64,000 nt of DNA from an uncultured Lentisphaeraceae bacterium (GCA_964386385.1 CAYLRN010000004.1:50054-114053), one strand, 5' to 3'; counted from the first letter of the stretch, positions 32,082 to 63,266 are shown. Numbers and translations: made by a program. The notes: generated from the sequence alone by a model not told the origin.

Positions 32082-32087
32082 AATCGT

Positions 32088-32687: not shown

Positions 32688-32700
32688 GGCGGTGATTATA

Positions 32701-32738
32701 CCATCCCTGCACGAGTTTGCAAACTCGTGTAGGGATGG
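32701..32738. repeat. 38-bp palindrome P2 (1 mismatch)
   Basis: ccatccctGcacgagtttgcaaactcgtgtagggatgg. Lies between the divergent starts 32687 (-) and 32831 (+). Confidence 0.9.
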
Positions 32739-32830
32739 TGTTGCCAAAATATGCAGAATCGTCTGCAGGACAGAAGGCCTCATGACACTTAGTTTCGCTA
32801 TCATGGCTGACCTTGCGAAAGGGAACTGCC

Positions 32831-33640: not shown

Positions 33641-34124
33641 AGTTTGCGGAACGATGTCCTTCGCAATTGGCGTGAAAATCCCGCCGCTATCATTCCGCAA
33701 ATGTGATATCACATACGGACAAGAACGAAATGGTAATAATATACGAATCGTGCGAAGAAACCGCCAAGCGACAGCGGACCTCCGCTCGGCGTGTACATGT
33801 TCTCTGCGCAAACAGATAGGGCGAAGGCGCTCGGCGCGACGGCAAACTGTGGATGATTCCGCAGACGACAGGAAAGCCGCTCGACGGTCGGACGAAACGC
33901 AGGCTTGTGATTCCCGCAGCCATGCGCGGAGAAATCATCGAAGTCGACAGTCTCAAGGACAAACTTGCCGACAGGCGCATTACGAGGCGTTCACGTCATG
34001 TCACGCCAAAGGCGACGGCGCGCCAATGCTTGCGATATTCGCGGAGCGTGAACGACCGAGACTTGCGGATTGCCTGTCTATTTTTACATTCGTGCCACTT
34101 GCCCGTATTTTAAGAGGGGAATCT

Positions 34125-48649: not shown

Positions 48650-48666
48650 CAGTCACCACAGAAGAC

Positions 48667-48708
48667 GAGATTGAGAACTTTTTCAAAAACGCAAAAGTTC
48701 TCAATCTC
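48667..48708 (+). terminator. 16-bp perfect hairpin (terminator-like)
   Basis: gagattgagaactttt / aaaagttctcaatctc with a 10-nt loop, 18 nt after the stop at 48649. No clear U-tract. Confidence 0.4.
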
Positions 48709-48747
48709 GTTCCGCCGCCCTTGCGTCCGCCCCGCCGCAGCAAAGCC

Positions 48748-48930
48748 CATTTTCGTGACGGAATCGCCCTTCCGAAGTCCCATTCTCGTGACAAATCGAC
48801 CGTTTCGAACCTCACGTTTCGTGACAAATAGGCCGTTTTGAACCTCACGTTTCGTGACAAATAGGCCGTTTTGAACCTCGCATTTCGTGACAAAACCGAT
48901 CTTTCAAAGTCTCATTTTCGTGACGGCCGC
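48748..48930 (+). repeat. iteron-like array: six direct repeats with exact 33-bp phasing
   Basis: The TCGTGAC core sits at 48753, 48786, 48819, 48852, 48885 and 48918. Units 3 and 4 are near-identical (cgtttcgtgacaaataggccgttttgaacctc). Confidence 0.8.
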
Positions 48931-49094
48931 TTGCGGAACGGCACAGAAACATGATGTGATTCTGCAAAGGAACGGCATTGCTGAATTGCAGTTTCATTCC
49001 GCAGAACGGCATCAAGGCCTCGCAGTTGGAAGTCATTGCGCAGACAAGAGACAATGGGAGTGGAATCTGTGTAGAAAACGAATGGCGTTGAATC

Positions 49095-49153
49095 GGGAGG
49101 GGCGCGCTCCTGCGCGACCGAAATGCGGCGGCGGTCAAGGACGACCGCCCTAC
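49095..49153. repeat. REP-like hairpin pair
   Basis: gggaggggcgcgctcctgcgcgacc and gcggcggcggtcaaggacgaccgccctacc. Confidence 0.65.
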
Positions 49154-49346: not shown

Positions 49347-50495
49347 ATGACTGCGGCGGAGCGGAAGGTCGCGCTCGTCGCGGGCGTAGGGACGACGCCG
49401 GCGGTGCTGACGGAGACGGTCTGGGGGCTTGCCCACCAGACGCCACCGGTGGTGCCGGACGAGATCGTCGTGTTGACTACGCAGACCGGCCGGCAGAGGC
49501 TTGAGCGCGAAGTGATGGCGGGCGAGCCGTCCGTATGGTCGCGCCTCGTCTCCGCGCTCAAGGAAGAGGGGCTGCCGGTGGACGGAAAACTCGCGTTCGG
49601 AGAGACCTCCATCCGCGTCTTCCCTGACGCGCGGAGGAATCCGCTTGCCGACCTGCGCTCCGGCGACGAGAACCTACGGGCCGCCGACTTCATGCTCGCG
49701 CAGCTGCGCCAGTACACGGAAAGCCCGGACTTCGTCGTGCTCACGTCGATCGCGGGCGGGCGCAAGACGATGAGCGCGCTGCTCCTCTCCTGCATGACGC
49801 TGCTTGGGCGGGCTGACGACAGGGTCTACCACGTCCTCCTTCCTCCCGAATTCGAGGGACGTCTCGATCCGCCCTTCTACTTCCCCGAAAATGGCGTCTT
49901 GCACCGGACATCCGCCAATCCTCCCTGCGAACTGGCGGGGGCGGCGGCTAAGATCGAACTCTTCGAGGTGCCGTATGTCCGGATGCGCGGATGGTACCAG
50001 GAGAAGTTCAAGACGATTCCGCCGTCCTACGAGACGCTCGTGTCGAAGGTGCAGTCCGTGGCGCCGGCCGCCGTCGTGCCGACCGAAATCGCCATCGACG
50101 TCTGGAACGGCACGGCGACGGTGAACGGCCGCCATGTGTCCATGAGCCGACCGTGCTTCGCGGCGCTAGTCCTTCTCGCGTCCGGCTGCGCCGCGAAGGA
50201 CCTGCACGAACGCCTCTGCGGCCTGCACGCCGGAAAAGGCGGAGCGGACTGCGACTGGCTTTCGTCGTTCAGGGAGGATCGCGGACGTTTCTCTAGCCGG
50301 GAATATACGCAAGACCTGACGAAGGTGATGTCCGAACTCCGCAAAAAGCTGAAGGAGGCTGGGTTCGCGGACGCGGAAAGCCTCGTGCCGATGCGCAGCC
50401 GCCCCGTCGTCTTCCCGCTTTCCCGCGTTCACTGGAAGAACCGCAACCGCTTCACGGACGTCTGCGGATGTCCGTATGCGAAGGAACAGGTCTGA
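49347..50495 (+). CDS. CRISPR-associated CARF protein (Cas_NE0113-like) with C-terminal winged-helix region
   Basis: VALVAGVGTTPAVLTET...LTSIAGGRKTMSA CARF core. The C-terminus VNGRHVSMSRPCFAALVLLASG resembles an OmpR-type wHTH. Confidence 0.7.
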   Translation: MTAAERKVALVAGVGTTPAVLTETVWGLAHQTPPVVPDEIVVLTTQTGRQRLEREVMAGEPSVWSRLVSALKEEGLPVDGKLAFGETSIRVFPDARRNPLADLRSGDENLRAADFMLAQLRQYTESPDFVVLTSIAGGRKTMSALLLSCMTLLGRADDRVYHVLLPPEFEGRLDPPFYFPENGVLHRTSANPPCELAGAAAKIELFEVPYVRMRGWYQEKFKTIPPSYETLVSKVQSVAPAAVVPTEIAIDVWNGTATVNGRHVSMSRPCFAALVLLASGCAAKDLHERLCGLHAGKGGADCDWLSSFREDRGRFSSREYTQDLTKVMSELRKKLKEAGFADAESLVPMRSRPVVFPLSRVHWKNRNRFTDVCGCPYAKEQV

Positions 50496-50598
50496 ACTGC
50501 GCTACAATGTGCGGCGCATGGCAAAGAAGACGCAACCCCTTTTATTGACAGAGACAATGAGTATGGAATCTGTGGCAGCAAACGGATGGCGTGGAATT

Positions 50599-50662
50599 GG
50601 GAGGGGCGCGCTCCTGCGCGACCGGGACGAGAACGACGGACGCGCAGGAGCGCGTCCCTCCC
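50599..50662. repeat. inverted REP pair between the CARF gene and cas10
   Basis: gggaggggcgcgctcctgcgcgacc ... ggacgcgcaggagcgcgtccctccc. Confidence 0.7.
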
Positions 50663-50760
50663 GTTGCGCAGTCGCATCAGCCGCCACTTGTGCATCCGCC
50701 GTGGCGAATGCCGCATGCACTCGTCTTCTCTGGGCTGTGCAATAAGGAGAAAAAACGCAG

Positions 50761-52149
50761 ATGGACAAGTACAAGGAACTGCTGCTGTTTCAGATCGGCC
50801 CCGTGCAGGAGTTCATCGCACAGGCCGAAACGCCTGGAGACCTCCGCGCCGGCTCGGAGATGCTGTCGGAAGTCACGGCGGCGGCGCTGCGGACAATTCC
50901 CGGCTACGAGACCGAGGCCGTGTTCCCCGCCGTCAAGAAGGACGAACTTGCGGGGATTCCCAACCGCTTTCTCGTCTTCGTGCCGCAGGGACGCGGCGAG
51001 GAACTGGCGCGCGCGGCCGCCGAGGCGGCGCGGGAGGAACTTCGGCGAATGGCCGAGGATGCATTCCCGAAGACGGGTCTTGCAGAAAGTCTGCGCAAAG
51101 CCTTCATGCGTCAGGTGGAGGCGTTCCTCCAGACGACATGGGCCGTCCTGAAGAGTCCGAGCGACGACATGGGCGCGGACTACAGGACGATCGGCAAGCT
51201 GATGGCCCTTCGACGCAACGTGCGCGCGTTCGACGCCTGGCATGAGGAAACGACGGGCCGCGTGAAGGATTTTCTGTCCGGAAAGGAGTGCGCATTGGAC
51301 GTGCCGGATGGCAGGTCTCCCAACCGCAACAGCGGACGCGGCGCGATGAATCTCATCAAGAAGGCCCGCTGGACGAATGCGAACAAGAACGAGGCCTCCA
51401 GGCTGGGCGACTACGTTGCCGTCCTCGCGCTGGACGGCGACCACATGGGCCGCGCGCTTTCGGGCTTCAAGACGCAAGAGGAGCATCGCGACTTCAGCGA
51501 GAAGCTGGCGGCATTCGCCCGGTCAGTTTCCATTCAAAAGGAAGACGGCCAGCTCATCTACGCCGGCGGCGACGACGTCCTTGCGGTCGTGAAGGCAACA
51601 CGAGCGGTCCCCATTGCGAAGGAACTGGCGAAGCAGTTCAAGGACACAGTGAAAGCCGACGGCATTACGGCGTCCGTCGGCATTGCCATCGGCTCGTCGA
51701 AGGCGCCGTTGCAGGACCTCGTCCACGAGGCGCACTCCGCGGAAAGCCGAGCCAAGCGCGACTATGGACGCGACGCGCTTGCGGTTTCCATCCTGAAGCG
51801 TTCCGGCGAAATCCTGCATTGGGGATGCAAGTGGGATTCGAAGGCGTTCGAGATCTACGAGAAACTGACAAGTGCAAGCGGCAAGGATTCCCTTTCGCGT
51901 TTCGCATACAAGCTTGCGGGCTTCCTCGCCCCCTACTGCCTTGAATCATGCAAGGAACTGGATGAGAACATGAAGGACGTCGTCCATGCGGAGACGCTTC
52001 ACGTCCTTGAGCAGACAGAGGGCGCAAAGGACGTTCTGTCGGAAGAACTGTTTAGGGACTATCTTGACGAGGAGTGCGTAAAAACGCACCCCAAAGACTA
52101 TCTTGGGCTGTTCCTCTGCGAGGCGTTCATCGACCGCCCGCGTGGATAA
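50761..52149 (+). CDS. cas10: Cas10/Cmr2, minimal form (no HD domain, no CxxC Zn finger, GGDD intact)
   Basis: Starts directly with the Cmr2 N-terminal motif LLLFQIGPVQEFIAQA..LRAGSEMLS. Cyclase palm VAVLALDGDHMG and IYAGGDDVLAV. 462 aa. Confidence 0.85.
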   Translation: MDKYKELLLFQIGPVQEFIAQAETPGDLRAGSEMLSEVTAAALRTIPGYETEAVFPAVKKDELAGIPNRFLVFVPQGRGEELARAAAEAAREELRRMAEDAFPKTGLAESLRKAFMRQVEAFLQTTWAVLKSPSDDMGADYRTIGKLMALRRNVRAFDAWHEETTGRVKDFLSGKECALDVPDGRSPNRNSGRGAMNLIKKARWTNANKNEASRLGDYVAVLALDGDHMGRALSGFKTQEEHRDFSEKLAAFARSVSIQKEDGQLIYAGGDDVLAVVKATRAVPIAKELAKQFKDTVKADGITASVGIAIGSSKAPLQDLVHEAHSAESRAKRDYGRDALAVSILKRSGEILHWGCKWDSKAFEIYEKLTSASGKDSLSRFAYKLAGFLAPYCLESCKELDENMKDVVHAETLHVLEQTEGAKDVLSEELFRDYLDEECVKTHPKDYLGLFLCEAFIDRPRG

Positions 52150-52162
52150 GGAGAGAAGGGAA

Positions 52163-53356
52163 ATGGGAAAGACGACATACGAACTGACTCCGCGCGACGT
52201 GCTGTTCTTCCGCGACGCCCGGCCGATGGATGTCGACAAGTCGCGGACGGACGACGTGTTCAACGTCGGACACGGCGCGAACTGGCCGCGCCCCGACCGG
52301 CTTTTCAGCGCCGTAATCCATGAACTTGTACGCGATTCCCTTGCGCCCGAAGGCGCATGGTACGGCAAGGTTTCGGATCTGCGCGTGACGGGACCGTTTC
52401 CGCTTCGGAACGGTACGTTGTATCTGCCGACGCCGCTTGACTGGGACATGAAACTTGTCGAGTTCAACAATGCGCTCGGCGCCACGGACGCCCCCGCGCC
52501 GCTCACGGCGGGCTTCGCCGACCGCGTCATCGAAAAGAAGTCCTATCCGAAGTGGATTTCGACCGTGGACTACGAGCGCTACCTTGAAGGCGAGGAGGCG
52601 GACACGCCGCGGGATGACGACAGTTCCCTATTTCTGCGCGAACCGCGCATCGGCACGACGCTTGACGCGGAGACAGGAGCTTCGAAGCGCGTAGAGGGGA
52701 AGACGGAGAGCGGTCGCTACGCGGCGGAATACCTCCGTCTCGGCAAGGACGTAAAACTGCTCTGCGCCGTAGAGACGGAACGCGCTGCGGAGTTGAACGG
52801 AAACTGGGTGCGTTTCGGCGGGCAGGGCGGTCTTGTGCGCTTCGATGCGGCGGGCGACCTTGACGCACAGCTGTCCAGACTGCCGCAGAATGCGCCGACG
52901 AAGTTTGTGCGCTGGACGCTTCTCTCGCCGGCCCTCTTCGCGAAGGGGTGGTATCCCAACTGGCTTGAGGAGACGGCGGACGGAATGCGCACCGGCAAGG
53001 TGATGCTTCCGGCGGAAAAGGTTCTGCGCCGCCCAGGGGAATCACGCGCGGCGTATCGGGCGCGGATGAAGACCGAGATGCGTCCATTCGAGACGGCGCG
53101 TCTGATTGCGGCGTGTGTCGGGAAGGCTGTGGCCTTTTCGGGATACGATTCGCAGGAGCGCGAAAAGCCGACGGAACTCGCCGTCCCGGCGGGGTCGTCC
53201 TACGTCTTCGCCTGCGACACGGCCGAGGAGGCGAAGAAACTTGTGGATGCGCTTCATCTGAAGCCTCTTTCCGACCTTGGTGAAAAGGGCTTTGGGCTTG
53301 GCGTGTGCTCGTACGTGTCCGCGCCTGAGCCGTTCAAGGCGGAACAGAACAGCTGA
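52163..53356 (+). CDS. cmr3: Cmr3
   Basis: ATG 52163. YELTPRDVLFFRDARPM N-terminus typical of Cmr3. Sits between cas10 and cmr4. Confidence 0.8.
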   Translation: MGKTTYELTPRDVLFFRDARPMDVDKSRTDDVFNVGHGANWPRPDRLFSAVIHELVRDSLAPEGAWYGKVSDLRVTGPFPLRNGTLYLPTPLDWDMKLVEFNNALGATDAPAPLTAGFADRVIEKKSYPKWISTVDYERYLEGEEADTPRDDDSSLFLREPRIGTTLDAETGASKRVEGKTESGRYAAEYLRLGKDVKLLCAVETERAAELNGNWVRFGGQGGLVRFDAAGDLDAQLSRLPQNAPTKFVRWTLLSPALFAKGWYPNWLEETADGMRTGKVMLPAEKVLRRPGESRAAYRARMKTEMRPFETARLIAACVGKAVAFSGYDSQEREKPTELAVPAGSSYVFACDTAEEAKKLVDALHLKPLSDLGEKGFGLGVCSYVSAPEPFKAEQNS

Positions 53357-53362
53357 TTTGCG

Positions 53363-54259
53363 ATGTCAAAAAGGGAATCTACCATGCAGACGAAACTCAT
53401 GACCATCTTCACCCGCACGCCGCTCCACGTGGGATGCGGATCTTCCGTCGGCGCGGTCGACCAGCCGGTCGCCCGCGAACGCCACACGCGCTTCCCGGTC
53501 ATCCCCGGCTCCGCCATCAAGGGCGTCCTCGCCGACCTGTGGAACGAGGAGAGGCTCGACCCGAAGGACGCAGGAGGAAGGAAAGTGGTGATTGTCCGTT
53601 CTGCCGAGGGTGTCATGCTCTTCGGCGAGACGGACACGAATAATCCGTCCGCCGGCAAGCTGCTCATCGGCGAGGGAAAACTTCTCGCTTTTCCCGTCCG
53701 CTCCGCAAAAGGCGCGTTCGCGTGGCTGACCTGCCCGCTCGTCCTCAACCGCTTCAGGCGCGACGCGGGCGCATCGTTTTCCGTGCCGAAGTTCAGGGAC
53801 ACGACCTCCGCCGTCGTGGCGCAGGACAGCGCACTCTGCCTGAAGGAGAACAATGTCATTTTCGAGGAGTACCCGCTCGCGGCGGAGAAGACGCTGAATG
53901 CGGCTCTCGCCGATGAGTTCAAGAATCTCTCCGACGACTCCGTGTGGCAGAACGAAGTCGCCGCGCATCTCGCCGTCGTCTCCGACGAACTCTTCCGGCA
54001 TTTCGCCGAGAACGCCTGCGAAATCGCGCAGCACAACCGCATCGACGACGAGACGGGCGTCGTCGAAAATGGAGCTCTCTTCAGCCAGGAGAACGTGCCG
54101 AGCGAAACTCTCTTCTACAGCGTCATGAATGCGCAGGACGCCGATCCTCTTGACAAACTGGCGACGGGCCTCGCCAAGGAAAGGAATCTCGTCCAGATCG
54201 GCGCGGACGTCACTACGGGTCTCGGCTGGTGCACGGTCGCGCTGAAGGAGGTGAAGTGA
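53363..54259 (+). CDS. cmr4: Cmr4 (Cas7-type RAMP backbone/RNase subunit)
   Basis: TPLHVGCGSSVGAVDQPVARE (catalytic-Asp context), IPGSAIKGVLAD, and a C-terminal GADVTTGLGWC glycine loop. Confidence 0.85.
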   Translation: MSKRESTMQTKLMTIFTRTPLHVGCGSSVGAVDQPVARERHTRFPVIPGSAIKGVLADLWNEERLDPKDAGGRKVVIVRSAEGVMLFGETDTNNPSAGKLLIGEGKLLAFPVRSAKGAFAWLTCPLVLNRFRRDAGASFSVPKFRDTTSAVVAQDSALCLKENNVIFEEYPLAAEKTLNAALADEFKNLSDDSVWQNEVAAHLAVVSDELFRHFAENACEIAQHNRIDDETGVVENGALFSQENVPSETLFYSVMNAQDADPLDKLATGLAKERNLVQIGADVTTGLGWCTVALKEVK

Positions 54260-54693
54260 TGGGAGGCGATTCAATGAATGTTTCCGGTGGAAACGAGGGG
54301 CTTCGCAATCTTGAACAGCTCCGCGCCCAGCACGCCTATGCGTGGCGCGACAAGATCGGCACGAGCAAGGAGGGCGGCCGCGCCGTAGCGAAGAAAGTGC
54401 CGGCGATGATCGTCTCCAACGGCTTTCTCGGCGCGCTTGCGTTCGCAATGGAGGACAACCCCGGACATCTCTCCGTCTTCAAGGCAATCATCGACTATCT
54501 GCACGCGGCAAAGGTCGACTGCGGAATCGCCGCCGCCGAGCCTGCCGCGTTCATGGACGCGCTCTGCGCAGCGGACGCCGACACGCTCCGCGCCGTGACG
54601 TCCGAGGCGATGGCGTACCTGAACTATCTGCGGCGCTTCGCGAAGCCGGGGAAGGAAGAGGCCAATGAAAATCACAGTGGCAGCAGCAGGTAG
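54259..54693 (+). CDS. cmr5: Cmr5 (Cas11 small subunit)
   Basis: ATGA overlap with the cmr4 stop. Helical; VAKKVPAMIVSNGFLGALAF pattern. Confidence 0.7.
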   Translation: MGGDSMNVSGGNEGLRNLEQLRAQHAYAWRDKIGTSKEGGRAVAKKVPAMIVSNGFLGALAFAMEDNPGHLSVFKAIIDYLHAAKVDCGIAAAEPAAFMDALCAADADTLRAVTSEAMAYLNYLRRFAKPGKEEANENHSGSSR

Positions 54694-56155
54694 TTCTCCA
54701 AGGCCATCCAATGGCGGACGATGCGTTCCTCGTCCGACGGCCTTGGCGGAGGTATGCAACCTTCTTGGCGGCGACAGGTTTCCGCATTGCGAATCGCGCT
54801 CGCTGCGGCTTGAGAAGTTCGTCCGAATCGGCGGCAACTCCAAGCGGGAGGAGATCGACGCGGTGGTGAAGTGTCAGTCGAGGCTGGCGCGTCCGATGCC
54901 GCTGCCGGCGGGGGCGGTCCAGTTCCCCGCGACGCTGAAGAGCCGTCTCATCGTCAACCAGGCGGGCGGAATCCTGGAAAACGCCGGCCTCTGCCTCCAC
55001 CCTCATTTCGGCTATCCGTACGTTCCCGGCAGCGCCGTGAAAGGCGTCGCCCGCCATGCGGCGTGGTGCGAATGGAATACGGAAACAGACGAGGGCAAAA
55101 AGGCCGACGTCGCCCGCCGCATCGCCGTCGTCTTCGGCTACCCGACAACGGACAACGGACTGGACAGGCATCTGGCAGAACGCGGATGCGACGAGCGCCG
55201 CTGCGGCGCGGTGTCGTTCTTCGCGGCCGAACCGGAAAACGGCAAAGCCCCGCTTGTCACGGACATCGTGAACTGCCATCACCCGAAATACTACGCAGGT
55301 GGCCAGCCTGGCGCAACTGACGACGAACAGCCGAATCCGCAGTTCTTCCCGGCGGTGGAAGCGGGCGCGACGTTCGTCTTCACAATCGCGCCTGTCAGCC
55401 GTGCCGGTCTCGGCGGCGGGGCGAGACGCCCCGCCCTACCGACGGGCGCGTGTTCTGCGGAATCGGCATGGCGCCCCGCCCTACCAGAAGGCGATTCTTC
55501 TACCCAATCGGCAGGGCGCGACGTCCCCGTCGCGCCGCACGTCGCCGCCGCGCTTGCCGACGCGAAACGCTGGCTCAAGGCAGCCCTGACCGAAAACGGC
55601 ATAGGCGCGAAGACCTCCGCCGGCTACGGATGGTTCTCCGTCGGCACTGACACCGACGACGCCGAATGGAACGGAAAGCGCGAAGCGCAGGAACGCGCCG
55701 CCGCCGATGCACGGCGGAAGAAAGCCGAGCAGTCGGAATTGCATTGCCTTGTCATGTCGCTGGCGGGCATGGACGAGAAAGCGCCCGAATTCTCCGCGCT
55801 CCTCCGTTCGCTTGAAAGGCGCTCGGACGACATGGACGAACTGGACAAGACCGAGTTCAACAGGCAGAAGAAGCGCGAACCGGAGCTTTCGCCAAAGGAG
55901 AAGGTTCGCCGCGAATGGGACGGCAAAACGGACGTCCAGTGCGCGACAGGACGCTTCATCCGCGAGTTTCAGAAACTGGACGAGGTGACCAAGGCGACGG
56001 TCGTGTCCGTACTGCGTACCCACCCGCTCTGGACATACCTCAAGACCAGGAACTTCAAGGACATCAAGAAGAAGCAGCATATGTCCGATGTCCGCAGGGC
56101 TGTGGATTCCATTTGCGCATTCGCCAAGACGACGCCGGAGGGGAAGATGCCATGA
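54665..56155 (+). CDS. cmr6: Cmr6 RAMP with an in-frame REP insertion and a ~170-aa C-terminal extension
   Basis: RLIVNQAGGILENAGLCLHPHFGYPYVPGSAVKGVARH, then the glycine loop GIGAKTSAGYGWF. 496 aa. Confidence 0.8.
   Translation: MKITVAAAGSSPRPSNGGRCVPRPTALAEVCNLLGGDRFPHCESRSLRLEKFVRIGGNSKREEIDAVVKCQSRLARPMPLPAGAVQFPATLKSRLIVNQAGGILENAGLCLHPHFGYPYVPGSAVKGVARHAAWCEWNTETDEGKKADVARRIAVVFGYPTTDNGLDRHLAERGCDERRCGAVSFFAAEPENGKAPLVTDIVNCHHPKYYAGGQPGATDDEQPNPQFFPAVEAGATFVFTIAPVSRAGLGGGARRPALPTGACSAESAWRPALPEGDSSTQSAGRDVPVAPHVAAALADAKRWLKAALTENGIGAKTSAGYGWFSVGTDTDDAEWNGKREAQERAAADARRKKAEQSELHCLVMSLAGMDEKAPEFSALLRSLERRSDDMDELDKTEFNRQKKREPELSPKEKVRREWDGKTDVQCATGRFIREFQKLDEVTKATVVSVLRTHPLWTYLKTRNFKDIKKKQHMSDVRRAVDSICAFAKTTPEGKMP
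55411..55536. repeat. REP-like hairpins inside the cmr6 coding sequence
   Basis: cggcggcggggcgagacgccccgccctacc, ggcgccccgccctacc, cggcagggcgcgacgtccccgtcgcgcc. The block is ~126 bp (42 codons) and the frame is preserved. Confidence 0.75.
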
Positions 56156-56958
56156 CGAAGACATACAATCTAGAGTTCATCACGCCAGCGTTTCTGACGG
56201 GCGCGGACCAGTCAAAAGCCGAACTGCGCGCACCGTCAGTGCGCGGCGCCCTGCGCTGGTGGTTCCGCGTTTTGGGCGGAACGAAGGACGAGGAGGCGGT
56301 GGCCTTCGGCGGCGTCCATGGCGGCGCAAGGAAGAGCAAGGTCGTCGTGCGGACGGAGATGCCGAAACCCGTGCACGAGGAGTTCAAGAAGCCCGCCACG
56401 ATGTCCGACTTCGACTACCTTTACCACTTCGCCACCGTTTCGGGCGAGCCCAAGGGGATTCGCATCGGACTTCAGGCCTACTTCGCGACGGGGACGCGCT
56501 TCGCAATCCATGTCACGGAGAGCGGGCTTGCCGCCGATCTCTCCGCGAAGTTCTGGAAAGCCGTTGACTGCTTCATCCGCCTTGGCGCTCTGGGGCTTCG
56601 CGAAACACGCGGCTGCGGCGCATTTGCCGAACCGGATGCGCTTTTGTCGAAAGCCGAATTCATAGACTGGGCGAATGCGTTTCCGCGAAAGGCGGGAAAG
56701 GTGGCGGTCGTCTCCGACGAGACGCTCACTTCCGCAAAAAAGGCGCAAGAGGAGCTTGGGCGCTATTTGCGCGCGATTCGCCGCGACAACGACCTGAGCG
56801 GGAAACGGGAATCCGCGCTGGGCTATTCCATTGGCAACAAGCGCATAGCTTCGGCGCTGAAGCTGCGCCCAACCAGGGTGAAGGAGGGCTATCTTGCGGC
56901 CATCTTCTATTCGGACACTGCCTGCTCCTGCAAAAGCGTGGCGGATCTGATTCCATGA
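56152..56958 (+). CDS. cmr1: Cmr1 RAMP
   Basis: ATGA overlap with the cmr6 stop. LEFITPAFLTGADQSKAELRAPSVRGALRWWFR signature. Confidence 0.75.
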   Translation: MTKTYNLEFITPAFLTGADQSKAELRAPSVRGALRWWFRVLGGTKDEEAVAFGGVHGGARKSKVVVRTEMPKPVHEEFKKPATMSDFDYLYHFATVSGEPKGIRIGLQAYFATGTRFAIHVTESGLAADLSAKFWKAVDCFIRLGALGLRETRGCGAFAEPDALLSKAEFIDWANAFPRKAGKVAVVSDETLTSAKKAQEELGRYLRAIRRDNDLSGKRESALGYSIGNKRIASALKLRPTRVKEGYLAAIFYSDTACSCKSVADLIP

Positions 56959-57146
56959 CAACGGCTCTTGGCGGACTTCCGCCGCGCTACGACCCGTCGC
57001 TCGCCGATTCGCGCGAACTTGCCGCCGGCCGCATGATGCTTTTGAGCGCACTGCCGTGCAACGCGCACTTCGACTGGAACACATGCCACAGAATGAACGA
57101 CCACGTCGCTGCAATGTGCCGCCGCATCCGAGGCGAAAGAGAATGA
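56955..57146 (+). CDS. small Cys/His-rich ORF (63 aa), uncertain
   Basis: ATGA overlap with the cmr1 stop. ...CNAHFDWNTCHRMNDHVAAMC... Confidence 0.25.
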   Translation: MTTALGGLPPRYDPSLADSRELAAGRMMLLSALPCNAHFDWNTCHRMNDHVAAMCRRIRGERE

Positions 57147-57164
57147 AACATGGGAGAACGTGAA

Positions 57165-58322
57165 ATGAAGAATCAAGTGCTTCTTGTATCAGATCAGCCA
57201 ATACCGAATTTCATACCGATTCTGAACGACGAACTGAAGCCCAAATCGGTGACGCTCGTCGTTTCCGACAAAATGAGGACAAAAGCCGAATGGCTCAAGC
57301 GCGAAATCAGAAAACAGCAGGTTGAAGTTCTAGACGACATCCTGATTGGCGACAGGGAATCAGACATAGCCGCCGTTCAGAATCGCCTTCTAGAATGGGC
57401 AGGCGAGCATGAGGAACTCCTGACGGAAAGCACGTTAAACATCACAGGCGGCACGAAGCCTATGGCAATCGCCGCCCAGGAACTCTTCCGCAGCGAGCAA
57501 CGCCCTGTCTTCTATCTTGACATTCAATCGGACACCGCGTCCTGGATTGCCGACGGCAAAAAACCAAGACCATCGGTTCAACTCAGAAACTCGCCGACAT
57601 TGGCGCAGTTCTTTGGCTTGATGGGAATGGCAATGGTGGGTGGCGATTTTAAATCGCAACTTGAAAACGAAAAATGGCGCTATTTCTGCGACGAGATTGC
57701 ACAGAACGTTCGTGAGTATGCCTCAGCGCTCGGCGGATTGAACTGTCTCGCAAGCGACGCCGAGCGCAATCGGGAGCTGCTGTTCAACCCACGGGAACAA
57801 GAATTCAGATTGCCCAAATGGGCAGACCTTGTTGAAATGTTGTCGGCTCACGAACTGATTCGTTCAAATCGCAACGGCAAAAAGGAATTCGTCTCGCCAG
57901 ATGCGCGAAGATTTTGCAATGGAATTTGGCTGGAACACTATGTCTTCACGCTGCTGAAGGAATTCGGGTTCAACAAGAAGCGCGCGTTGATGAATGTCAA
58001 GGTCAGGCGCGAAAGCACGGGACTTTCGTCGATTGAAAACGAATTCGACGCGGTCGTGCTTCACAAGAACACATGCTATATCGTCGAGTGCAAGACGCGA
58101 AACATGAAACCGAGCAAGAAAAACGCCCATGTAGACATAGGGGACTCCGCCGTCTACAAACTGGCAGAACTTTCAAGCGAACTGGGGCTTCGCGCAACTG
58201 GCATTCTCGTGTCGGCGCGCGAAGTGCGCAAGGAAGACAAAGACCGAGCCAAATACCGCAATGTAAAGGTTTTCAGCGACCTAACGACCCTCAAGGAGGA
58301 TTTCGCGAAGGTTTTCGGATGA
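57165..58322 (+). CDS. can2: Card1/Can2-like CARF + PD-(D/E)xK nuclease effector
   Basis: GGGAG RBS, ATG 57165. CARF motifs LLVSDQPIPN and NITGGTKPMA. Nuclease GIWLEHYV and EFDAVVLHKNTCYIVECKT. Confidence 0.8.
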   Translation: MKNQVLLVSDQPIPNFIPILNDELKPKSVTLVVSDKMRTKAEWLKREIRKQQVEVLDDILIGDRESDIAAVQNRLLEWAGEHEELLTESTLNITGGTKPMAIAAQELFRSEQRPVFYLDIQSDTASWIADGKKPRPSVQLRNSPTLAQFFGLMGMAMVGGDFKSQLENEKWRYFCDEIAQNVREYASALGGLNCLASDAERNRELLFNPREQEFRLPKWADLVEMLSAHELIRSNRNGKKEFVSPDARRFCNGIWLEHYVFTLLKEFGFNKKRALMNVKVRRESTGLSSIENEFDAVVLHKNTCYIVECKTRNMKPSKKNAHVDIGDSAVYKLAELSSELGLRATGILVSAREVRKEDKDRAKYRNVKVFSDLTTLKEDFAKVFG

Positions 58323-58564
58323 CTCATCAGCACGGACTTCCCCGAAGGAACCTCGTCGCGACGTACCCGTGCGGCACGTACGTCTTCGAGCTGAAGGTGG
58401 GCGGGACGGCGGCGGAGGCCCTGGGGCTGATTCGCGAGCGGGGGTACGCGAAGCCGTACCTCGCGCAGGGTCTCCCCGTATGGGCGGTCGGCCTCGCGTT
58501 CGACCTGGAGACGCGCAGCTCGTCGACGCCGACGTCGATAGGGTGCGGTAAGGTCGACGGCTGA
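58319..58564 (+). pseudogene. C-terminal remnant of a PD-(D/E)XK (DUF1703-partner) family gene
   Basis: ...GTYVFELKVGGTAAEALGLIRERGYAKPYLAQGLPVWAVGLAFD... matches only the family C-terminus. No N-terminal part is present. Overlaps the can2 stop. Confidence 0.5.
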
Positions 58565-58727
58565 CGAAAACCCCCCGAAAACTGCCGTCAGCCGTCAAAG
58601 GATAATCTGGAAAAGATTGGATTTCCCTGCGAATTTCGCAATTCGCCTTTTCAGCCTCGCGCTTCAAGCCGTCAGCCGTCAAAAACGCCCATTTGCCCCT
58701 TTACTTCAAGGCCGAAAATATGGTACA
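58565..58727 (+). promoter_or_regulatory. CRISPR leader
   Basis: AT-richer 163 bp directly 5' of repeat 1. Contains the exact 16-nt direct repeat gccgtcagccgtcaaa at 58584 and 58668. Confidence 0.6.
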
Positions 58728-59295
58728 TTGCAATTGTTGATGAAGCCGAAAGGCTATTGAGACGCAACAAGCGGCGCCAGGAACACCACCGCCGCAATGG
58801 TTGCAATTGTTGATGAAGCCGAAAGGCTATTGAGACAAGGTCCCGTACGACTCTTCCCCCTCCTGCCATGTGACTTGCAATTGTTGATGAAGCCGAAAGG
58901 CTATTGAGACCCCGCGTCAGGCGGGCGTCGCCTCCTCGTGGTTTCCACGGCATTGCAATTGTTGATGAAGCCGAAAGGCTATTGAGACGTCGCGGTGCGA
59001 TGCGGCGCAAGGCATTCCTGCAAGTCCGGATTGCAATTGTTGATGAAGCCGAAAGGCTATTGAGACTCCGGTCAAGTTCGCGTACCTTCCCGCAGTCGTT
59101 GAGGTATTGCAATTGTTGATGAAGCCGAAAGGCTATTGAGACGGGCGGCACTGGGGCGGCACTGGGGCGGCTCTGGGGCAATTGCAATTGTTGATGAAGC
59201 CGAAAGGCTATTGAGACTCGTCGCCTTGGTTCTTCGTCGCTTGTCCGCTGCCCCTCTGATTGCAATTGTTGATGAAGCCGAAAGGCTATTGAGAC
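58728..59295 (+). CRISPR. CRISPR array, 8 identical 36-nt repeats and 7 spacers (37-42 nt)
   Basis: Repeat TTGCAATTGTTGATGAAGCCGAAAGGCTATTGAGAC at 58728, 58801, 58875, 58953, 59031, 59107, 59182 and 59260. The 3' end ATTGAGAC is the 8-nt tag type. AGCC-GAAA-GGCT mini-hairpin. Confidence 0.95.
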
Positions 59296-59352: not shown

Positions 59353-59466
59353 ATGAGGGTAGTATTTGGTACGTGTTCGGCGGCCGCGGTGTTCATGGCT
59401 TCGATCGTGGTGGCGTTCGGAGTCGCGGCATGGCGTGTCTCGAAAGGGGGGAGGCTAGCGAAGTGA
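59353..59466 (+). CDS. 37-aa single-TM peptide
   Basis: GGAGG RBS at 59342. MRVVFGTCSAAAVFMASIVVAFGVAAWRVSKGGRLAK. Confidence 0.35.
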   Translation: MRVVFGTCSAAAVFMASIVVAFGVAAWRVSKGGRLAK

Positions 59467-59672
59467 TAGGCAAGGCAATTGGATGCATATCGTGCCTCGG
59501 GGCGGCGGCAATTGTCACGTCGGTTGCGTGGGCGCTGGCGATTCGCGCCCACCTGTGGGTCACCTTGCATGTGACGGGGGAGCCGTGGAGCGCGCTTCTG
59601 CTGATGCTCGCCATGCTGTACGCGGCGTGGCTCGTCGTGAAATGGCTTTTAAAAAGAAAGGAAAAGGAATGA
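59463..59672 (+). CDS. 69-aa two-TM peptide
   Basis: GTGA start/stop overlap. VIGKAIGCISCLGAAAIVTSVAWALAI...ALLLMLAMLYAAWLVVKWLLKRKEKE. Part of track ORF 59373..59672. Confidence 0.35.
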   Translation: MIGKAIGCISCLGAAAIVTSVAWALAIRAHLWVTLHVTGEPWSALLLMLAMLYAAWLVVKWLLKRKEKE

Positions 59673-59750
59673 AGCACAAGCTGATGGGCGTCCCAATGGA
59701 CGTCTGCTGCGCCGAGCAGGTCGCGGCGTACCGCCCTTTGGCGGGAGCGA

Positions 59751-60326
59751 ATGGCGGATTGCCTCCGCATCCCGCAACGAACATGGGCGATGCGCTTCAT
59801 GGGACTCGTCCATTTCTTCGAGCCGCGCGATGGCGAAACTGGTAAACAGGCAGCCGCCCGCATCTCCGAACGCAATTTCGATTTCGCCTACGATAGGTTC
59901 TACGGAAACGACAGACTGCGCGAAGGCCTTGACGAGATTGGCATACGGCTGCGCGTTGACAACAACCGGCATGTCCAGTATGTCCGTACAATTCTCTACT
60001 ATTCCGGCTGGATGTACGTAAAGTTCGCCCGGACAATCGCCCGTGCCGTCGGCAAGTCCTCATGGGAAAAGATTGCCGAACACGACACCATCCTTCGGTT
60101 GCTGGAACACGACATCAATCGTTTTCAGCGGACAGGCGATTCGTCCGAGGAGGAATTGTCGCGGGAGGACGTCGTCTCGTTCTTCCAGTCTTTGGCGCGC
60201 CTCTACCGACGCTACAACGCGCCGTTCTCCGTGGAGGACGTGCAGGAACTGGCGCCGCTCAAAAGATCCGTCGCCCAGCGCATCATAGACGAAATGTGCG
60301 CGGCGTCCGATGGCGGTTCGCTGTAG
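59751..60326 (+). CDS. hypothetical protein (segment 1 of a same-frame triplet)
   Basis: 191-aa helical ORF with no motif I recognise. The alternative ORF 59669..59845 (ATGA-coupled, good RBS) overlaps its 5' end. Confidence 0.45.
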   Translation: MADCLRIPQRTWAMRFMGLVHFFEPRDGETGKQAAARISERNFDFAYDRFYGNDRLREGLDEIGIRLRVDNNRHVQYVRTILYYSGWMYVKFARTIARAVGKSSWEKIAEHDTILRLLEHDINRFQRTGDSSEEELSREDVVSFFQSLARLYRRYNAPFSVEDVQELAPLKRSVAQRIIDEMCAASDGGSL

Positions 60327-60353
60327 GATCTTGAAACTCGTCCACACATCGCA

Positions 60354-61988
60354 TTGGATGGCAAAGGACGCCCGGTGTTCTCTCTGCCGCAGAATGGCCA
60401 TTTCGCGGAGGGGGCGGACACGGTTGTGTTCGCGTTTCGGGAGGCGTCTGACAGTTCTGTGCCGCCGTTCGCCCATGCCATATACCATCGTACGTCAAAA
60501 GGCGACCATGTCCTGTCATGGGACAGGCATCGCGAATACGGATCTGGAGTCCCCTGCAGGGGACGGCACATCGTCCGTTCCATCACGCGGTTCGAGCCTG
60601 GGACAGACAAGCCGCAGGTCGAAGTGATTCCGCAGGTCTGCCTTGACCAGGAACGAACGCATCTGCTTCTGCGTCTGCGAGATTCGGCAAGGATGGCGTG
60701 TGGATATGAACTTGACGCAAATGGCTCTGACGCCGGCATCGTTTCCACGCGACAGAAACTCTCCGCCGGAACACGCTGCCAGATTCTCCCGTTGACCGGA
60801 GGCGACTTGAACGTCGCCGTCATGTGCGGGGGCGAAAGGTCGCCTCTTCCGATTTCCGAAAACGGCGTTCTGACTATTCCCGGCGCGGCGGACGAGCTGA
60901 TCGTCGGAGAGGATGTCTACGAAGTCCGGACAGTCGCCGACGACTACTTGAACATGGACGATCGATGCCGCCATTTCCGACATCCAGGGCGACTGTTCTT
61001 CGAGCGTTCGCGCAATCCGTTCACGGACGTTTGCCGTGCAGCAGGAGAAAACCTCTCCGCATGGTATCTGTTCGATGATGGCGGCAGTTTGCGCAGGATG
61101 CCAATGCCTCTTTCCGGCGATGCAGACCAAACCATCCCGAACGAAATCCTGTGGAAGAAGGGAAGCCTTGAAGTTCGCGTGAACGATACGCCGCTGTTCA
61201 GGCGCGCTGTCACTTTTACGGAGAAACTGGACATACGGGCATTTGAACGTCCGCTTGACCTGGAGGCGGACGCGAGGCGGATAGCCGTGGTTGGCGACGA
61301 ACGGCTTCCAGTCGACATACTGCCGCGCACCAGGCGGATCGAGATCCAGTGCCACGGATTCACCCTCTCGCTTCCAATTAGCCGGACGGGCGTATATTTC
61401 GAGTGCGCGGACACGGCAATTCCGATTCCGCGTGAACGTCCCGGCGCATCGTACGCGCGCGAACTTGCGCGGAGCGACTTCGAGCGGCTGAAGTGCAGCA
61501 TCGCAACGGAATCAGATGCGGACAATGTTTTCGTGGCGCGGGGAAATACGACGCTTGTCACCCTTGACGAACGCAGATTCACCGGTGGCAAGCTGCTTGC
61601 GGACGAGGCTCTGCAGAAAACGGACAGCGACCATTTCGCCATCTGCGTAAGGCATGAGGGAAGACGCGGGCCGGAACTTTCATTCTACAAGTTCCATCTC
61701 TACGATCCGCAGCGCACAAACGTCGCGGACGCAGGAGAGAATCCACACAGCGTGGCATGGAGACATGAAGTTGAAACGGATGACCTTGTACTGACATACT
61801 GGATTGCGTTTTCAGACCGCAACCGGCAGAAGCATCTTGCGTTCTTTCCGGCGCATCGCCAAGACGAATCCCCCATTGTCGTCGAATCCGGGCCGAAGGA
61901 GACGTATCTACATGTTGAAGACGAAGCGACTGGACGCTGCCGCGAGACGATTCGCATCCCCGGCTTCTTTAGGCGAGACATCGATTGA
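60354..61988 (+). CDS. hypothetical protein (segment 2, TTG start, no RBS)
   Basis: 544-aa ORF in the same frame as 59751..60326. Separated from it only by TAG 60324..60326 and 9 sense codons. Confidence 0.5.
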   Translation: MDGKGRPVFSLPQNGHFAEGADTVVFAFREASDSSVPPFAHAIYHRTSKGDHVLSWDRHREYGSGVPCRGRHIVRSITRFEPGTDKPQVEVIPQVCLDQERTHLLLRLRDSARMACGYELDANGSDAGIVSTRQKLSAGTRCQILPLTGGDLNVAVMCGGERSPLPISENGVLTIPGAADELIVGEDVYEVRTVADDYLNMDDRCRHFRHPGRLFFERSRNPFTDVCRAAGENLSAWYLFDDGGSLRRMPMPLSGDADQTIPNEILWKKGSLEVRVNDTPLFRRAVTFTEKLDIRAFERPLDLEADARRIAVVGDERLPVDILPRTRRIEIQCHGFTLSLPISRTGVYFECADTAIPIPRERPGASYARELARSDFERLKCSIATESDADNVFVARGNTTLVTLDERRFTGGKLLADEALQKTDSDHFAICVRHEGRRGPELSFYKFHLYDPQRTNVADAGENPHSVAWRHEVETDDLVLTYWIAFSDRNRQKHLAFFPAHRQDESPIVVESGPKETYLHVEDEATGRCRETIRIPGFFRRDID

Positions 61989-62054
61989 GGACGTGGGCTG
62001 ATCTGTTTCGTCGTCCACCGAAAGACCTACTTCGGGGAACGCCACGGCTACGAT

Positions 62055-63266
62055 GTGCTGAGTTCCGGCTTCTTCCTGAATGCGCCGGCGGAGAAGACGA
62101 CGGAAATCGGAAACGACCCATATGGTCTTCGTGCCGCATTCGCAGGCAGGGATGGTCTGATTGGCGAGGACGGCGATGCGATCCTTCGCGCCATGACGTC
62201 GAGGGACTCCGCCACGCAGAACTATGTCGCCGGCTTCCTCGACCGCATGAAGGACGCAGTGTCGGAACTGAACGTCTTCACATATCTCAATGCCTACTGG
62301 AACAAGATACCACGTCGCAGCGCAGACCGGCGTCCAAGCGGCTATGCGTTCATGGCGGGAGCGCATTTTGCGAAAATCCTTTCAGACGAGGTGGCGGCCG
62401 AGCCGTATCGTGGACTGTGGAGTCGGCTGCTAATCGGCTACCCTCATTTGAAACCGCAAAGCGACCGCTTGATACGGAAATATCTGTCGCGCGCAAGCCA
62501 TCTTGACAAACTGCCTGTTGCGTTGAAGTCTTCGCTTTGGAGGAAAGTGCGAAAGGCCATCGGACACACCTCTCCAATGGGGTATTTCATGTTCACGAGA
62601 AACCACGTGTTCTCCTATCCGCAGCTGGCGGAAGCAGTTCGCCGCGCATATCGACGCGGAACAAGTCTGCGCGAACTGCAGAACAGAATCCCCAAAACTC
62701 CTTTAGGCGACAGGGCTCGAAACGCCATAGCCAAACTCTATTCAGCCTGGATGAAGGTTGCACGAGGCGAATTGTGCGTTGAAGAAATCGCATGGAAGTC
62801 TGGTACGATCTACCGCAGCGTCCATGCAGAATTTCCGCAAGGCAATCTTGGATGTTTCAGCTGGAAGTTTTTCGAGCCGGCCTTTGACGGTTTTATCGAT
62901 TCGCCAAGCCTCTTTTACGACGGCTACGAGGACGGTTTCAGGGAGGTTCGCGGAAACACATGGGGTGAGAATTGCTACCTTTCCGACGACGACATCGAAA
63001 AATTCATTGAGACAATGGGGCTGCGTCTTCACAATTGGCGGCTTAATCCGACACTGGGAGAGGCGCAGGGCTTGCGGAACGTTTTCGTTTTTCTCGAAAG
63101 CGTGGACGCCCACGTCAATCTCCTGCCTGATCGCAAGGACCCTCGCATGGGGTTGCTGGACGGCATTGAGAACGAGGCCTGGTTCCAATGCAAACTTGCA
63201 CGAAAGTCATCGGCGAAGAAGTGGTCAGAACTTGACCGCATGAAAGAGGAGATGCAAAGAAAGTGA
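62055..63266 (+). CDS. hypothetical protein (segment 3, GTG start, no RBS)
   Basis: 403-aa ORF in the same frame again. Separated by TGA 61986..61988 and 22 sense codons (GRGLICFVVHRKTYFGERHGYD). Confidence 0.5.
   Translation: MLSSGFFLNAPAEKTTEIGNDPYGLRAAFAGRDGLIGEDGDAILRAMTSRDSATQNYVAGFLDRMKDAVSELNVFTYLNAYWNKIPRRSADRRPSGYAFMAGAHFAKILSDEVAAEPYRGLWSRLLIGYPHLKPQSDRLIRKYLSRASHLDKLPVALKSSLWRKVRKAIGHTSPMGYFMFTRNHVFSYPQLAEAVRRAYRRGTSLRELQNRIPKTPLGDRARNAIAKLYSAWMKVARGELCVEEIAWKSGTIYRSVHAEFPQGNLGCFSWKFFEPAFDGFIDSPSLFYDGYEDGFREVRGNTWGENCYLSDDDIEKFIETMGLRLHNWRLNPTLGEAQGLRNVFVFLESVDAHVNLLPDRKDPRMGLLDGIENEAWFQCKLARKSSAKKWSELDRMKEEMQRK

Follow-up and report, generated by a model that had tools for sequence, protein, structure and literature searches.

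A compact, probably cyclase-only Cas10 in a type III-B CRISPR-Cas locus of an uncultured Lentisphaeraceae bacterium

A type III-B (Cmr) CRISPR-Cas locus in a 64,000-nucleotide stretch of DNA from an uncultured Lentisphaeraceae bacterium (GCA_964386385.1 CAYLRN010000004.1:50054-114053; hereafter the window, in whose coordinates all positions are given) encodes a Cas10 protein of 462 amino acids (aa) that has neither an HD domain nor a zinc finger. This raises the question of whether the protein is a truncation artefact, part of a decaying locus, or a naturally small enzyme that could still synthesise cyclic oligoadenylate (cOA). The evidence presented here makes it probable that the locus is an intact interference module with a naturally miniaturised, cyclase-only Cas10.

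Nine co-oriented open reading frames (ORFs), which overlap or are separated by short gaps, occupy positions 49347-58322 and are followed by a leader and a CRISPR array. Pfam, NCBIfam, and PADLOC agreed on the naming of the genes in the order CARF(NE0113)-cas10-cmr3-cmr4-cmr5-cmr6-cmr1-63-aa ORF-Can2/Card1. The gene order, coordinates, and motifs of the original prediction, which had been made by eye from the DNA alone, were thereby reproduced, and all of its domain calls were recovered by profile searches and structure prediction. The nine ORFs are intact, and in each of them the G + C content at third codon positions (GC3; 0.61–0.84, with card1 the weakest) is at least as high as at first (GC1) and second (GC2) positions. 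The overall G + C content is 0.63–0.71 across most of the window and 0.56–0.64 from approximately 48 kb to its end. The locus consists of the following features:

49347..50495, + strand: CARF protein (NE0113 / TIGR02584 / CARF5), 382 aa; Pfam Cas_NE0113, E = 5e-31, and TIGR02584, 161.8 bits
50761..52149, + strand: Cas10/Cmr2, 462 aa; TIGR02577, Pfam, PADLOC, AlphaFold2, and Foldseek
52163..53356, + strand: Cmr3 (Cas5-family subunit); Pfam Cas_Cmr3, E = 7.8e-33, and an independent gene call of 397 aa in L001
53363..54259, + strand: Cmr4 (Cas7 backbone, target-RNA nuclease); TIGR02580, 195.6 bits, and PDB 4w8w/4wnz, E = 1e-45
54259..54693, + strand: Cmr5 (Cas11 small subunit); Pfam Cas_Cmr5, E = 5.4e-17, and a 144-aa gene call
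54665..56155, + strand: Cmr6, 496 aa; TIGR01898, 98.4 bits over residues 91-324
56152..56958, + strand: Cmr1; TIGR01894, 38.5 bits, RAMPs, E = 7e-11, and synteny by tblastn
56955..57146, + strand: 63-aa ORF; 69–78% identity by tblastn in L002, L003, and L004
57150..58322, + strand: Can2/Card1, CARF plus PD-(D/E)xK nuclease domain, 390 aa; Pfam CARF_Card1 and Card1_endonuc, PADLOC CARF4 CARF_PDDEXK, E = 2e-86
58319..58564, + strand: PDDEXK_9-family gene remnant (C-terminal fragment); Pfam PDDEXK_9, E = 1.3e-4, under the gathering score
58565..58727, + strand: CRISPR leader; short blastn similarity to pre-array regions of L013 and L002
58728..59295, + strand: CRISPR array of 8 repeats and 7 spacers; repeat detection and sequence

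Existing Cas10 profiles already recognise the 462-aa protein well. It scored 127.4 bits against TIGR02577 (cutoff 79.4), matched Cmr2_N at residues 7-98 and palm2 at residues 218-341 in Pfam, and reached 211 and 206 bits with the PADLOC Cas10 models of 387 and 519 positions, respectively. No profile match to an N-terminal HD domain was obtained, the protein beginning at position 1 of the Cmr2_N model, and the 462-aa sequence contains no CxxC pair of a four-cysteine zinc finger. The catalytic motifs D225-G226-D227 and G269-G270-D271-D272 are kept. Both were invariant in alignments of 21 and of 70 compact sequences, as were the palm1 motifs FQxGPVQxFIxQ and PNR and the linker motifs KDxLxGxE and GAxNLxK. 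The picture of a 462-aa, HD-less, and zinc-finger-less Cas10 that retains DGD and GGDD, as drawn in the original prediction, thus stands, also with regard to the palm residues, none of which was lost on alignment. Two other identities were considered and rejected. mCpol, a stand-alone single-palm protein, gave a match of 34.3 bits at residues 222-310, but this match is contained in the stronger one to palm2, and the protein is a two-palm Cas10 in a full Cmr operon; and neither a split Cas10 nor a separately encoded HD protein was found in the locus by Pfam, NCBIfam, and PADLOC.

Because 462 aa falls under the 500-aa cut-off for “functional” Cas10 in one survey (PMC11229360), the protein might be regarded as a normal Cas10 of 600–900 aa that was truncated in assembly or annotation. 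However, an in-frame stop leaves only 5 codons upstream of the ATG at 50761, so that the protein cannot extend further at its N-terminus. This ATG has a good AAGGAG box in front of it, and the identical cas10 gene was also recovered from an independent contig (Logan, 4.8 kb). When 5.8 billion proteins were searched, at least 100 homologue clusters (90% identity) were retrieved, which are 50–82% identical to the window Cas10 and almost all 445–520 aa long. In a filter-free search, 5,691 Cas10-like proteins were found among 1.84 billion 50%-identity representatives; approximately 20 of them are compact (445–519 aa) and match the window Cas10 end to end, and the next length tiers lie at 536–612 and 780–1000 aa. 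Proteins of this size were encountered in more than 100 clusters drawn from many samples, as well as at 16 or more genome loci. Since close homologues share this length, and since the predicted fold described below is confident and complete, a truncation artefact is refuted and retains next to no probability. Judging by these homologues, the compact length of Cas10 is a conserved trait of a lineage and not an error.

The AlphaFold2 model of Cas10, calculated from the 70-sequence alignment, had a mean predicted local distance difference test score (pLDDT) of 90.7 and a predicted template modelling score (pTM) of 0.89. It comprises palm1 (residues 5-153) with the order beta-alpha-beta-beta-alpha-beta, a linker at about residues 154-215 that is partly of lower confidence (pLDDT 65–70 over residues 151-170), palm2 with DGD and GGDD (218-357), and a C-terminal helical domain (D4) with helices at 362-458. 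In a Foldseek search against the PDB, Cmr2 structures topped the list (9arw_A, E = 9e-22, query TM-score (TMq) 0.76; 3w2w, TMq 0.76), and other III-B, III-A, and III-D Cas10 chains were among the further matches. The inter-palm region of the model contains only two short helices (195-202 and 206-213); based on the boundaries of the aligned sequence blocks and on secondary structure, the D2 helical domain appears to be nearly gone.

The best match to the window Cas10 in both sequence (E = 2.4e-29) and structure was the Cas10/Cmr2 chain of DtCmr, a III-B system (9arw_A, 612 aa). Window residues 5-168 correspond to chain residues 20-181, and residues 216-385, which reach into the start of D4, to residues 333-524. 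As the match starts at chain residue 20, the HD domain is apparently absent from this protein too, but approximately 150 residues separate its two aligned blocks compared to 47 in the window Cas10, which is 150 aa shorter overall. Cmr2 of Pyrococcus furiosus (3w2w, 4w8y, 3ung) has the same fold (TMq 0.70–0.76) and the same GGDD palm, but differs by its N-terminal HD domain and by the distance between aligned blocks, which amounts to approximately 300 residues in Cmr2dHD versus approximately 146 in the window protein. The P. furiosus protein also has a four-cysteine zinc site and larger inserts.

For a comparison across organisms, 80 related genomic loci (labelled with L-numbers) were fetched. 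They stem mostly from metagenome-assembled genomes of Verrucomicrobiota, Kiritimatiellota, and Lentisphaerota from gut, rumen, and sediment, with a few from Anaerolineae and one from a cyanobacterium; the closest relative, at 77% Cas10 identity, is a Verrucomicrobiota genome of this kind. Three size tiers of Cas10 were distinguished. The compact tier (L002-L016, L024) measures 441–501 aa from the PVQ motif onwards and the HD-less middle tier about 500–600 aa, whereas the long tier of about 820–930 aa has approximately 185 additional N-terminal residues with the HD motifs FLHDPPEK and DHSIWSH. Long Cas10 proteins of loci from the Planctomycetes-Verrucomicrobia-Chlamydiae (PVC) clade (for example L025, L041, and L056) occur in the same locus architecture as in the window, with a CARF protein up to 61% and a Cmr4 up to 59% identical to those of the window (tblastn), and they likewise contain no CxxC pairs. 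They differ from the window Cas10 by the HD domain and by four inserts of 27–67 aa after window residues 61, 135, 203, and 237. Compared to the mid-size HD-less proteins, the window Cas10 is short only by approximately 20 aa after residue 61 and by 20–34 aa after residue 203. As none of the 80 related Cas10 proteins has paired CxxC motifs, the loss of the zinc finger is a property of the whole branch and not of the compact forms alone. In this size series, the compact Cas10 is seen as the end point of a stepwise reduction and not as a singular oddity.

The gene order CARF(NE0113)-cas10-cmr3-cmr4-cmr5-cmr6-cmr1 was found in dozens of contigs by tblastn of the window proteins. When all ORFs from the 80 loci were clustered all against all, four recurring partners emerged: an ORF of approximately 125 aa (in 31 loci), Card1 (18), Cas1 (16), and Cas2 (14). 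In L002, Cas1 (2.6e-71) and Cas2 (1e-19) were identified by Pfam directly upstream of the array, and the same layout with cas1-cas2 next to the array was seen in L082 and L084 based on independent gene calls and precomputed Pfam matches. The ~125-aa ORF lies between the CARF gene and cas10 (e.g., L003:1389-1775, L008:1287-1676, L013:1829-2203, L082:9587-9967) and was not recognised by Pfam or PADLOC. The top two PDB matches of its profile were the DUF1874 proteins 2x4i (SIRV1 ORF114; E = 0.07) and 2j6b (AFV3-109; E = 0.73), with NxF and GHxxT motifs aligning between the profile and these proteins, which have the AcrIII-1/Crn2 ring-nuclease fold. This similarity is a weak lead to a DUF1874- or ring-nuclease-like function, not a demonstration; the alternative that the ORF represents a piece of Cas10 was ruled out by the resemblance of its profile to DUF1874/AcrIII-1 proteins. 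No tblastn match to it was obtained in the window, where the gap between the CARF gene and cas10 spans just 265 bp.

In some relatives Card1 is replaced or supplemented by a Csx1-type CARF-HEPN protein (PADLOC CARF2, 3e-82) or by Csm6-like, Csx3-like, or APE2256-type proteins. Elsewhere, loci with a compact Cas10 always contain cOA-dependent effectors, either Card1 or Csx1-type CARF-HEPN, and most also contain the DUF1874-like ORF. Because of this consistent linkage to cOA-dependent effectors and ring-nuclease-like genes, the compact Cas10 is predicted to make cOA, and the association of a compact, HD-less Cas10 with such effectors is the strongest comparative argument for an active cyclase. 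Measured against these relatives, the window locus is best described as a trimmed copy of a conserved PVC-clade locus from which cas1-cas2 and the small DUF1874-like gene have been lost. The closest relatives carry cas1-cas2 by the array, and by this comparison the absence of both genes from the window copy is a secondary loss.

Some further observations were made on the related loci. DarT/NADAR (DarTG) toxin-antitoxin pairs lie beside several of them (L084:2636-4055 and others; 3–4 of 92 neighbourhood ORFs). L003 and L005 were deposited as bins of Faecalibacterium sp. CAG:74 and Barnesiella intestinihominis, respectively, but mis-binning is likely because the G + C content of L003 is 64% and both carry gene content of the PVC type. 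In L042 (Verrucomicrobiales, 1.48-Mb contig), two large arrays of 98 and 30 repeats at 2630-9712 and 19468-21620 flank the III-B locus; their repeats differ but have a GCCGAAAGGC core in common, and no cas6 was detected among the ORFs scanned from this 21.7-kb stretch.

The Cmr subunits that accompany Cas10 in the window were well recognised. Cmr4 (195.6 bits), Cmr6 (98.4), Cmr5 (30.9), and Cmr1 (38.5) all exceeded their NCBIfam cutoffs; Cmr3 was over the Pfam cutoff (114.9 bits) but under that of NCBIfam (72.8 versus 100.4). Cmr4 aligned over its full length to P. furiosus Cmr4 (E = 1e-45), Asp33 in GAVDQP falling on the catalytic D26 of GVVDQP, and the catalytic context noticed by eye is hence confirmed. 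Cmr1 starts with MTKTYNLEF, its start codon overlapping the cmr6 stop in an ATGA. Past its RAMP domain, Cmr6 has a C-terminal extension of approximately 170 aa (residues ~330-496), which is apparently charged and is conserved, as relatives align up to residue 496; the cmr6 gene also contains an internal 45-bp tandem duplication at 55427-55519. The small ORF that had been noted between cmr1 and card1 is indeed present and, in addition, conserved in three relatives: the 63-aa product (…GLPPRYDPSLADSRELAAGR…DWNTCHRMN…MCRR…) shows 69–78% identity by tblastn, and its gene 76–84% by blastn, in L002, L003, and L004. It had no family match in Pfam, NCBIfam, or PADLOC.

Both genes at the ends of the operon encode CARF proteins. 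Can2/Card1 matched CARF_Card1 with 60.9 and Card1_endonuc with 69.8 bits in Pfam, and the 390-aa protein aligned to Can2 (7bdv) over 345 residues (E = 2.9e-28) and also to VC1899 and Card1. The residues of the PD-(D/E)xK nuclease, including the D...ExK motif that had marked it as a card1/can2 effector, are kept: NEFDAVVLHKNTCYIVECKT matches NELDVVFLYHNKLHVIECKT, and NEFDAVV...VECKT corresponds to NELDVVF...IECKT of 7bdv. Can2 (7bdv) and Card1 (6wxw) are nucleases activated by cyclic tetra-adenylate (cA4), and by analogy activation by cA4 is predicted here. The NE0113-type protein exceeded the TIGR02584 cutoff (80.65 bits) twofold and matched PADLOC CARF5 (3.6e-56), which confirmed the CARF part of the predicted CARF-winged helix-turn-helix (wHTH) regulator. 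It had no sequence relative in the PDB, but the N-terminal domain of its AlphaFold2 model (pLDDT 79.8) matched CARF domains of Cad1, Card1, Csm6, and Cam1 in Foldseek. The wHTH part found weaker backing. The C-terminal domain (248-375) is well predicted as three short strands followed by helices, a pattern compatible with wHTH, and may tentatively be viewed as an OmpR/PhoB-like winged-helix domain. NE0113 proteins were predicted to be transcription regulators by Makarova et al. 2014 (PMC4012209); the current NCBIfam product name for TIGR02584 is ring nuclease.

The array at 58728-59295 contains 8 identical 36-nt repeats TTGCAATTGTTGATGAAGCCGAAAGGCTATTGAGAC and 7 spacers of 37–42 nt. The repeats are co-oriented with the cas genes and end in the 8-nt sequence ATTGAGAC. 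As anticipated from the sequence, each repeat contains a predicted Cas6-type mini-hairpin, AGCC-GAAA-GGCT, which is directly followed by ATTGAGAC; exactly 8 nt separate the end of the AGCC/GGCT stem from the spacer, as in the classical geometry of Cas6 cleavage. Across related loci, the 5' half of the repeat is variable but the 3' half, GCCGAAAGGCnnTTGnGAC, is shared; the latter is predicted to fold into a 3–4-bp stem with a GAAA loop. The 3' 25-mer of the repeat had no exact match in JGI metagenome contigs. The interval between card1 and the array was originally regarded as leader. This holds for its array-proximal part but not for the whole, as 58319-58564 holds the C-terminal fragment of a PDDEXK_9 (DUF1703-like) gene. 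The fragment occupies the position of the cas1-cas2 genes of the relatives, which suggests a deletion or replacement event at this junction. A separate feature of the array is spacer 6 (59143-59181), which consists of 3.4 copies of the 11-bp unit GGGCGGCACTG and is unusual for an acquired spacer.

How the array transcript could be processed was addressed by a search for cas6 and the adaptation genes. In agreement with the original prediction, no cas6, cas1, or cas2 was detected by Pfam or PADLOC in the flanks of the locus, and none of 20 further window ORFs of 192–507 aa from 1-35 kb, analysed one by one with Pfam, encodes Cas6, Cas1, or Cas2; these ORFs matched housekeeping, Fic, type I restriction-modification (R-M), and integrase families. 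Among the related loci, no Cas6 family was among the 25 commonest Pfam families listed for 92 neighbourhood ORFs (160–360 aa), nor did precomputed Pfam matches show one within 10 kb on either side of three further compact-Cas10 loci with called genes; two related loci adjoin type I genes (Cas3_HD, Cas5d). With no cas6 nearby, the precursor of the CRISPR RNAs (crRNAs) must be cut by an enzyme encoded elsewhere, which would be either a Cas6 from an unlinked gene or, by analogy, a housekeeping RNase. The latter applies to the III-Bv system (CRISPR3) of Synechocystis sp. PCC 6803, which likewise has no associated cas6 and where crRNA maturation is carried out by RNase E with the help of RNase J (PMC12464536). 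The two systems differ in that the Synechocystis crRNA has a handle of 13–14 nt and the repeat a 5' stem-loop, whereas in the window repeat a GNRA mini-hairpin is located near the 3' end at a distance of exactly 8 nt from the spacer, a geometry that favours an 8-nt handle.

In the proposed mechanism, crRNAs with the 8-nt ATTGAGAC tag would be loaded into a complex of Cas10, Cmr3, Cmr4, Cmr5, Cmr6, and Cmr1. Upon binding of a complementary transcript, Cmr4 would cut the RNA, and both Cas10 palms would be switched on to produce cyclic oligoadenylate, most likely cA4, given that Can2/Card1 and Csx1 belong to the effectors that respond to this species (PMC11229360). cA4 would then activate the Can2/Card1 nuclease for non-specific degradation of nucleic acids. 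The NE0113-type CARF protein would sense cA4 as well; it probably regulates transcription of the locus in response to cOA, and degradation of the signal may be a further function. As Cas10 is without an HD domain, a Cas10 DNase arm would be missing and immunity would rest on signalling. The combination of RNA cleavage by Cmr4, a cOA-activated Card1, and a CARF regulator, as originally proposed, remains the best-supported reading in view of the conserved Cmr4 aspartate, the D...ExK motif of Card1, and the pairing with effectors in relatives. Gene identities, motif conservation, fold, length class, and synteny are established, whereas the cOA species, the function of the regulator, the processing enzyme, and the activity in vivo are inferred.

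Several results weigh against a functional locus of this kind. Neither cas1-cas2 nor the DUF1874-like gene nor cas6 was found in the window locus and its flanks by Pfam, PADLOC, and tblastn; a search for protospacers in 50,697 phage genomes gave no meaningful match (one low-complexity match, E = 0.3), and IMG/VR contained no exact match to either of two spacer cores. Moreover, the closest Cas10 of solved structure has an inter-palm linker that is approximately 100 aa longer than that of the window protein, and the similarity of the CARF5 C-terminal profile to OmpR/PhoB-type DNA-binding domains (RstA, ArlR, PrrA, MtrA) is weak, though consistent (E = 0.04–0.9). Considering the lost genes and the junction remnant, the window copy could be heading to decay. 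It could then already be a non-functional remnant that neither produces crRNA nor provides defence, as might be argued from the cas1-cas2 genes and small ORF that the closest relatives have and the window does not, from the PDDEXK_9 pseudogene fragment at the card1/leader junction, and from an array of just 7 spacers, none of which matches known phages. The intactness of all nine ORFs with their high GC3, the identity of 8 of 8 repeats, and the catalytic motifs kept in Cas10, Card1, and Cmr4 speak against such decay and render it unlikely. Another compact-Cas10 locus (L086) is also devoid of cas1-cas2 within 10 kb, and many type III loci function with adaptation and Cas6 provided in trans.

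Even if the locus is functional, the compact Cas10 might make a different signal, such as cyclic tri-adenylate (cA3), cyclic hexa-adenylate (cA6), or a conjugate like S-adenosylmethionine-AMP (SAM-AMP), or be mainly structural, with cleavage by Cmr4 doing the work. The HD-less III-B Cas10 of Bacteroides fragilis indeed makes SAM-AMP and not cOA (PMC10600005), and the inter-palm region of the compact protein is strongly shortened. Yet the effectors linked to the compact protein are Can2/Card1 and, in relatives, Csx1, both of which belong to families characterised as cA4-activated (PMC11229360). Neither the window flanks nor the commonest families listed for the scanned genes of the relatives included CorA, NrN, SAM-lyase, or NucC, and GGDD and DGD are invariant. 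Both variants are therefore regarded as very unlikely, and cA4 signalling by a cyclase-only Cas10 remains the preferred interpretation. A more far-reaching reading appears rather doubtful: the PVC-clade loci would be autonomous III-B systems that do without Cas6 and whose Cas10 (~450–470 aa) would be the smallest working one known, the HD domain, the zinc finger, and most of the inter-palm domain would be dispensable for target-RNA-activated cOA synthesis, and a non-Cas6 activity, either of a Cmr subunit or of a housekeeping RNase, would cut at the conserved GCC-GAAA-GGC hairpin.

An HD-less Cas10 and a Cas6-less locus are both already established for type III-B (PMC8682760, PMC10600005, PMC12464536). 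The HD-less Cas10 proteins of the III-B systems of Vibrio metoecus and B. fragilis, in which defence is by signalling only (PMC8682760, PMC10600005), resemble the window Cas10 in this respect, but these systems use NucC with cA3 and CorA with SAM-AMP, respectively, as opposed to Can2/Card1 plus CARF5 in the window. In the census of Hoikkala et al. (PMC11229360), only 34% of Cas10 proteins have both domains; this census of type III systems discarded Cas10 proteins below 500 aa as non-functional, and the whole compact lineage was therefore removed from it. What appears to be new is a coherent lineage of ~460-aa Cas10 proteins that are trimmed at five places, keep all motifs, and are largely confined to PVC bacteria. 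A limited literature search retrieved no publication on this lineage, on Cas10 in Kiritimatiellae, or on the 9arw/DtCmr structure. The consistent linkage to Card1 or Csx1, to ring-nuclease-like genes, and to cas1-cas2 argues that the compact lineage is functional. If the ~460-aa Cas10 is active, the minimal protein for RNA-triggered cOA synthesis would consist of two palms and a C-terminal helical domain and would manage without HD domain and zinc finger and with hardly any D2 domain, which would be useful for understanding how target binding reaches the cyclase site and for designing RNA sensors of smaller size from type III systems. That cas6 is repeatedly missing beside arrays with Cas6-style hairpins also poses a testable question on crRNA maturation in Verrucomicrobiota, Kiritimatiellota, and Lentisphaerota.

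Upstream of the first two genes, a repeat search revealed a duplicated segment:

49047..49120, + strand: duplicated segment of approximately 75 bp, copy 1, upstream of the CARF gene
50550..50662, + strand: copy 2 of the segment (50550-50624) plus an inverted repeat, in the gap between the CARF gene and cas10

Positions 49047-49071 and 49073-49120 match 50550-50574 and 50577-50624, respectively, at 88–92% identity, so that the copies lie about 230–300 bp upstream of the start codon of the CARF gene and about 140–210 bp upstream of that of cas10. One arm of the 26-bp GC-rich inverted repeat (50599-50624 / 50637-50662) is formed by the 3' part of copy 2. One may speculate that the duplicated segment is a shared promoter or operator, perhaps for the CARF-wHTH protein. 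A scan for sigma-70 promoters and terminators yielded no promoter-like sites and fewer terminator-like sites than expected from shuffled sequences, and an Rfam search of 47.9-59.8 kb gave no match. Farther upstream, at 48751-48924 and thus about 420–600 bp from the CARF gene, five tandem 33-bp units each start with TTTCGTGAC or TCTCGTGAC, with a closing TTTCGTGAC at 48916-48924. All five occurrences of TTTCGTGAC in the window fall into this region, versus 0.8 expected by chance. The units resemble iterons or binding sites for a regulator and are absent beside the related loci. Just upstream of them, at 48665-48710, the two perfectly matching 18-bp arms of an inverted repeat, ACGAGATTGAGAACTTTT / AAAAGTTCTCAATCTCGT, enclose a loop of 10 nt.

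The upstream flank of the locus encodes a GH127 glycosidase, an esterase, and two large proteins. The region downstream of the array (59373-63999) contains four co-oriented ORFs (99, 191, 544, and 403 aa) for which neither Pfam nor PADLOC gave a match; after them, at the end of the window, comes the N-terminal part of a DruE-like (Druantia) helicase (E = 4e-46). The four ORFs were ruled out as parts of the CRISPR system, as tblastn found them not to be conserved next to any related locus; together with the helicase they may represent a Druantia-like system with unrecognised partner genes. A lower-GC island (0.54–0.56) at ~28200-33700 carries type I R-M genes, including three ORFs that match hsdS specificity models, as well as a tyrosine recombinase at 32813-33640, a layout reminiscent of a phase-variable hsdS shufflon.

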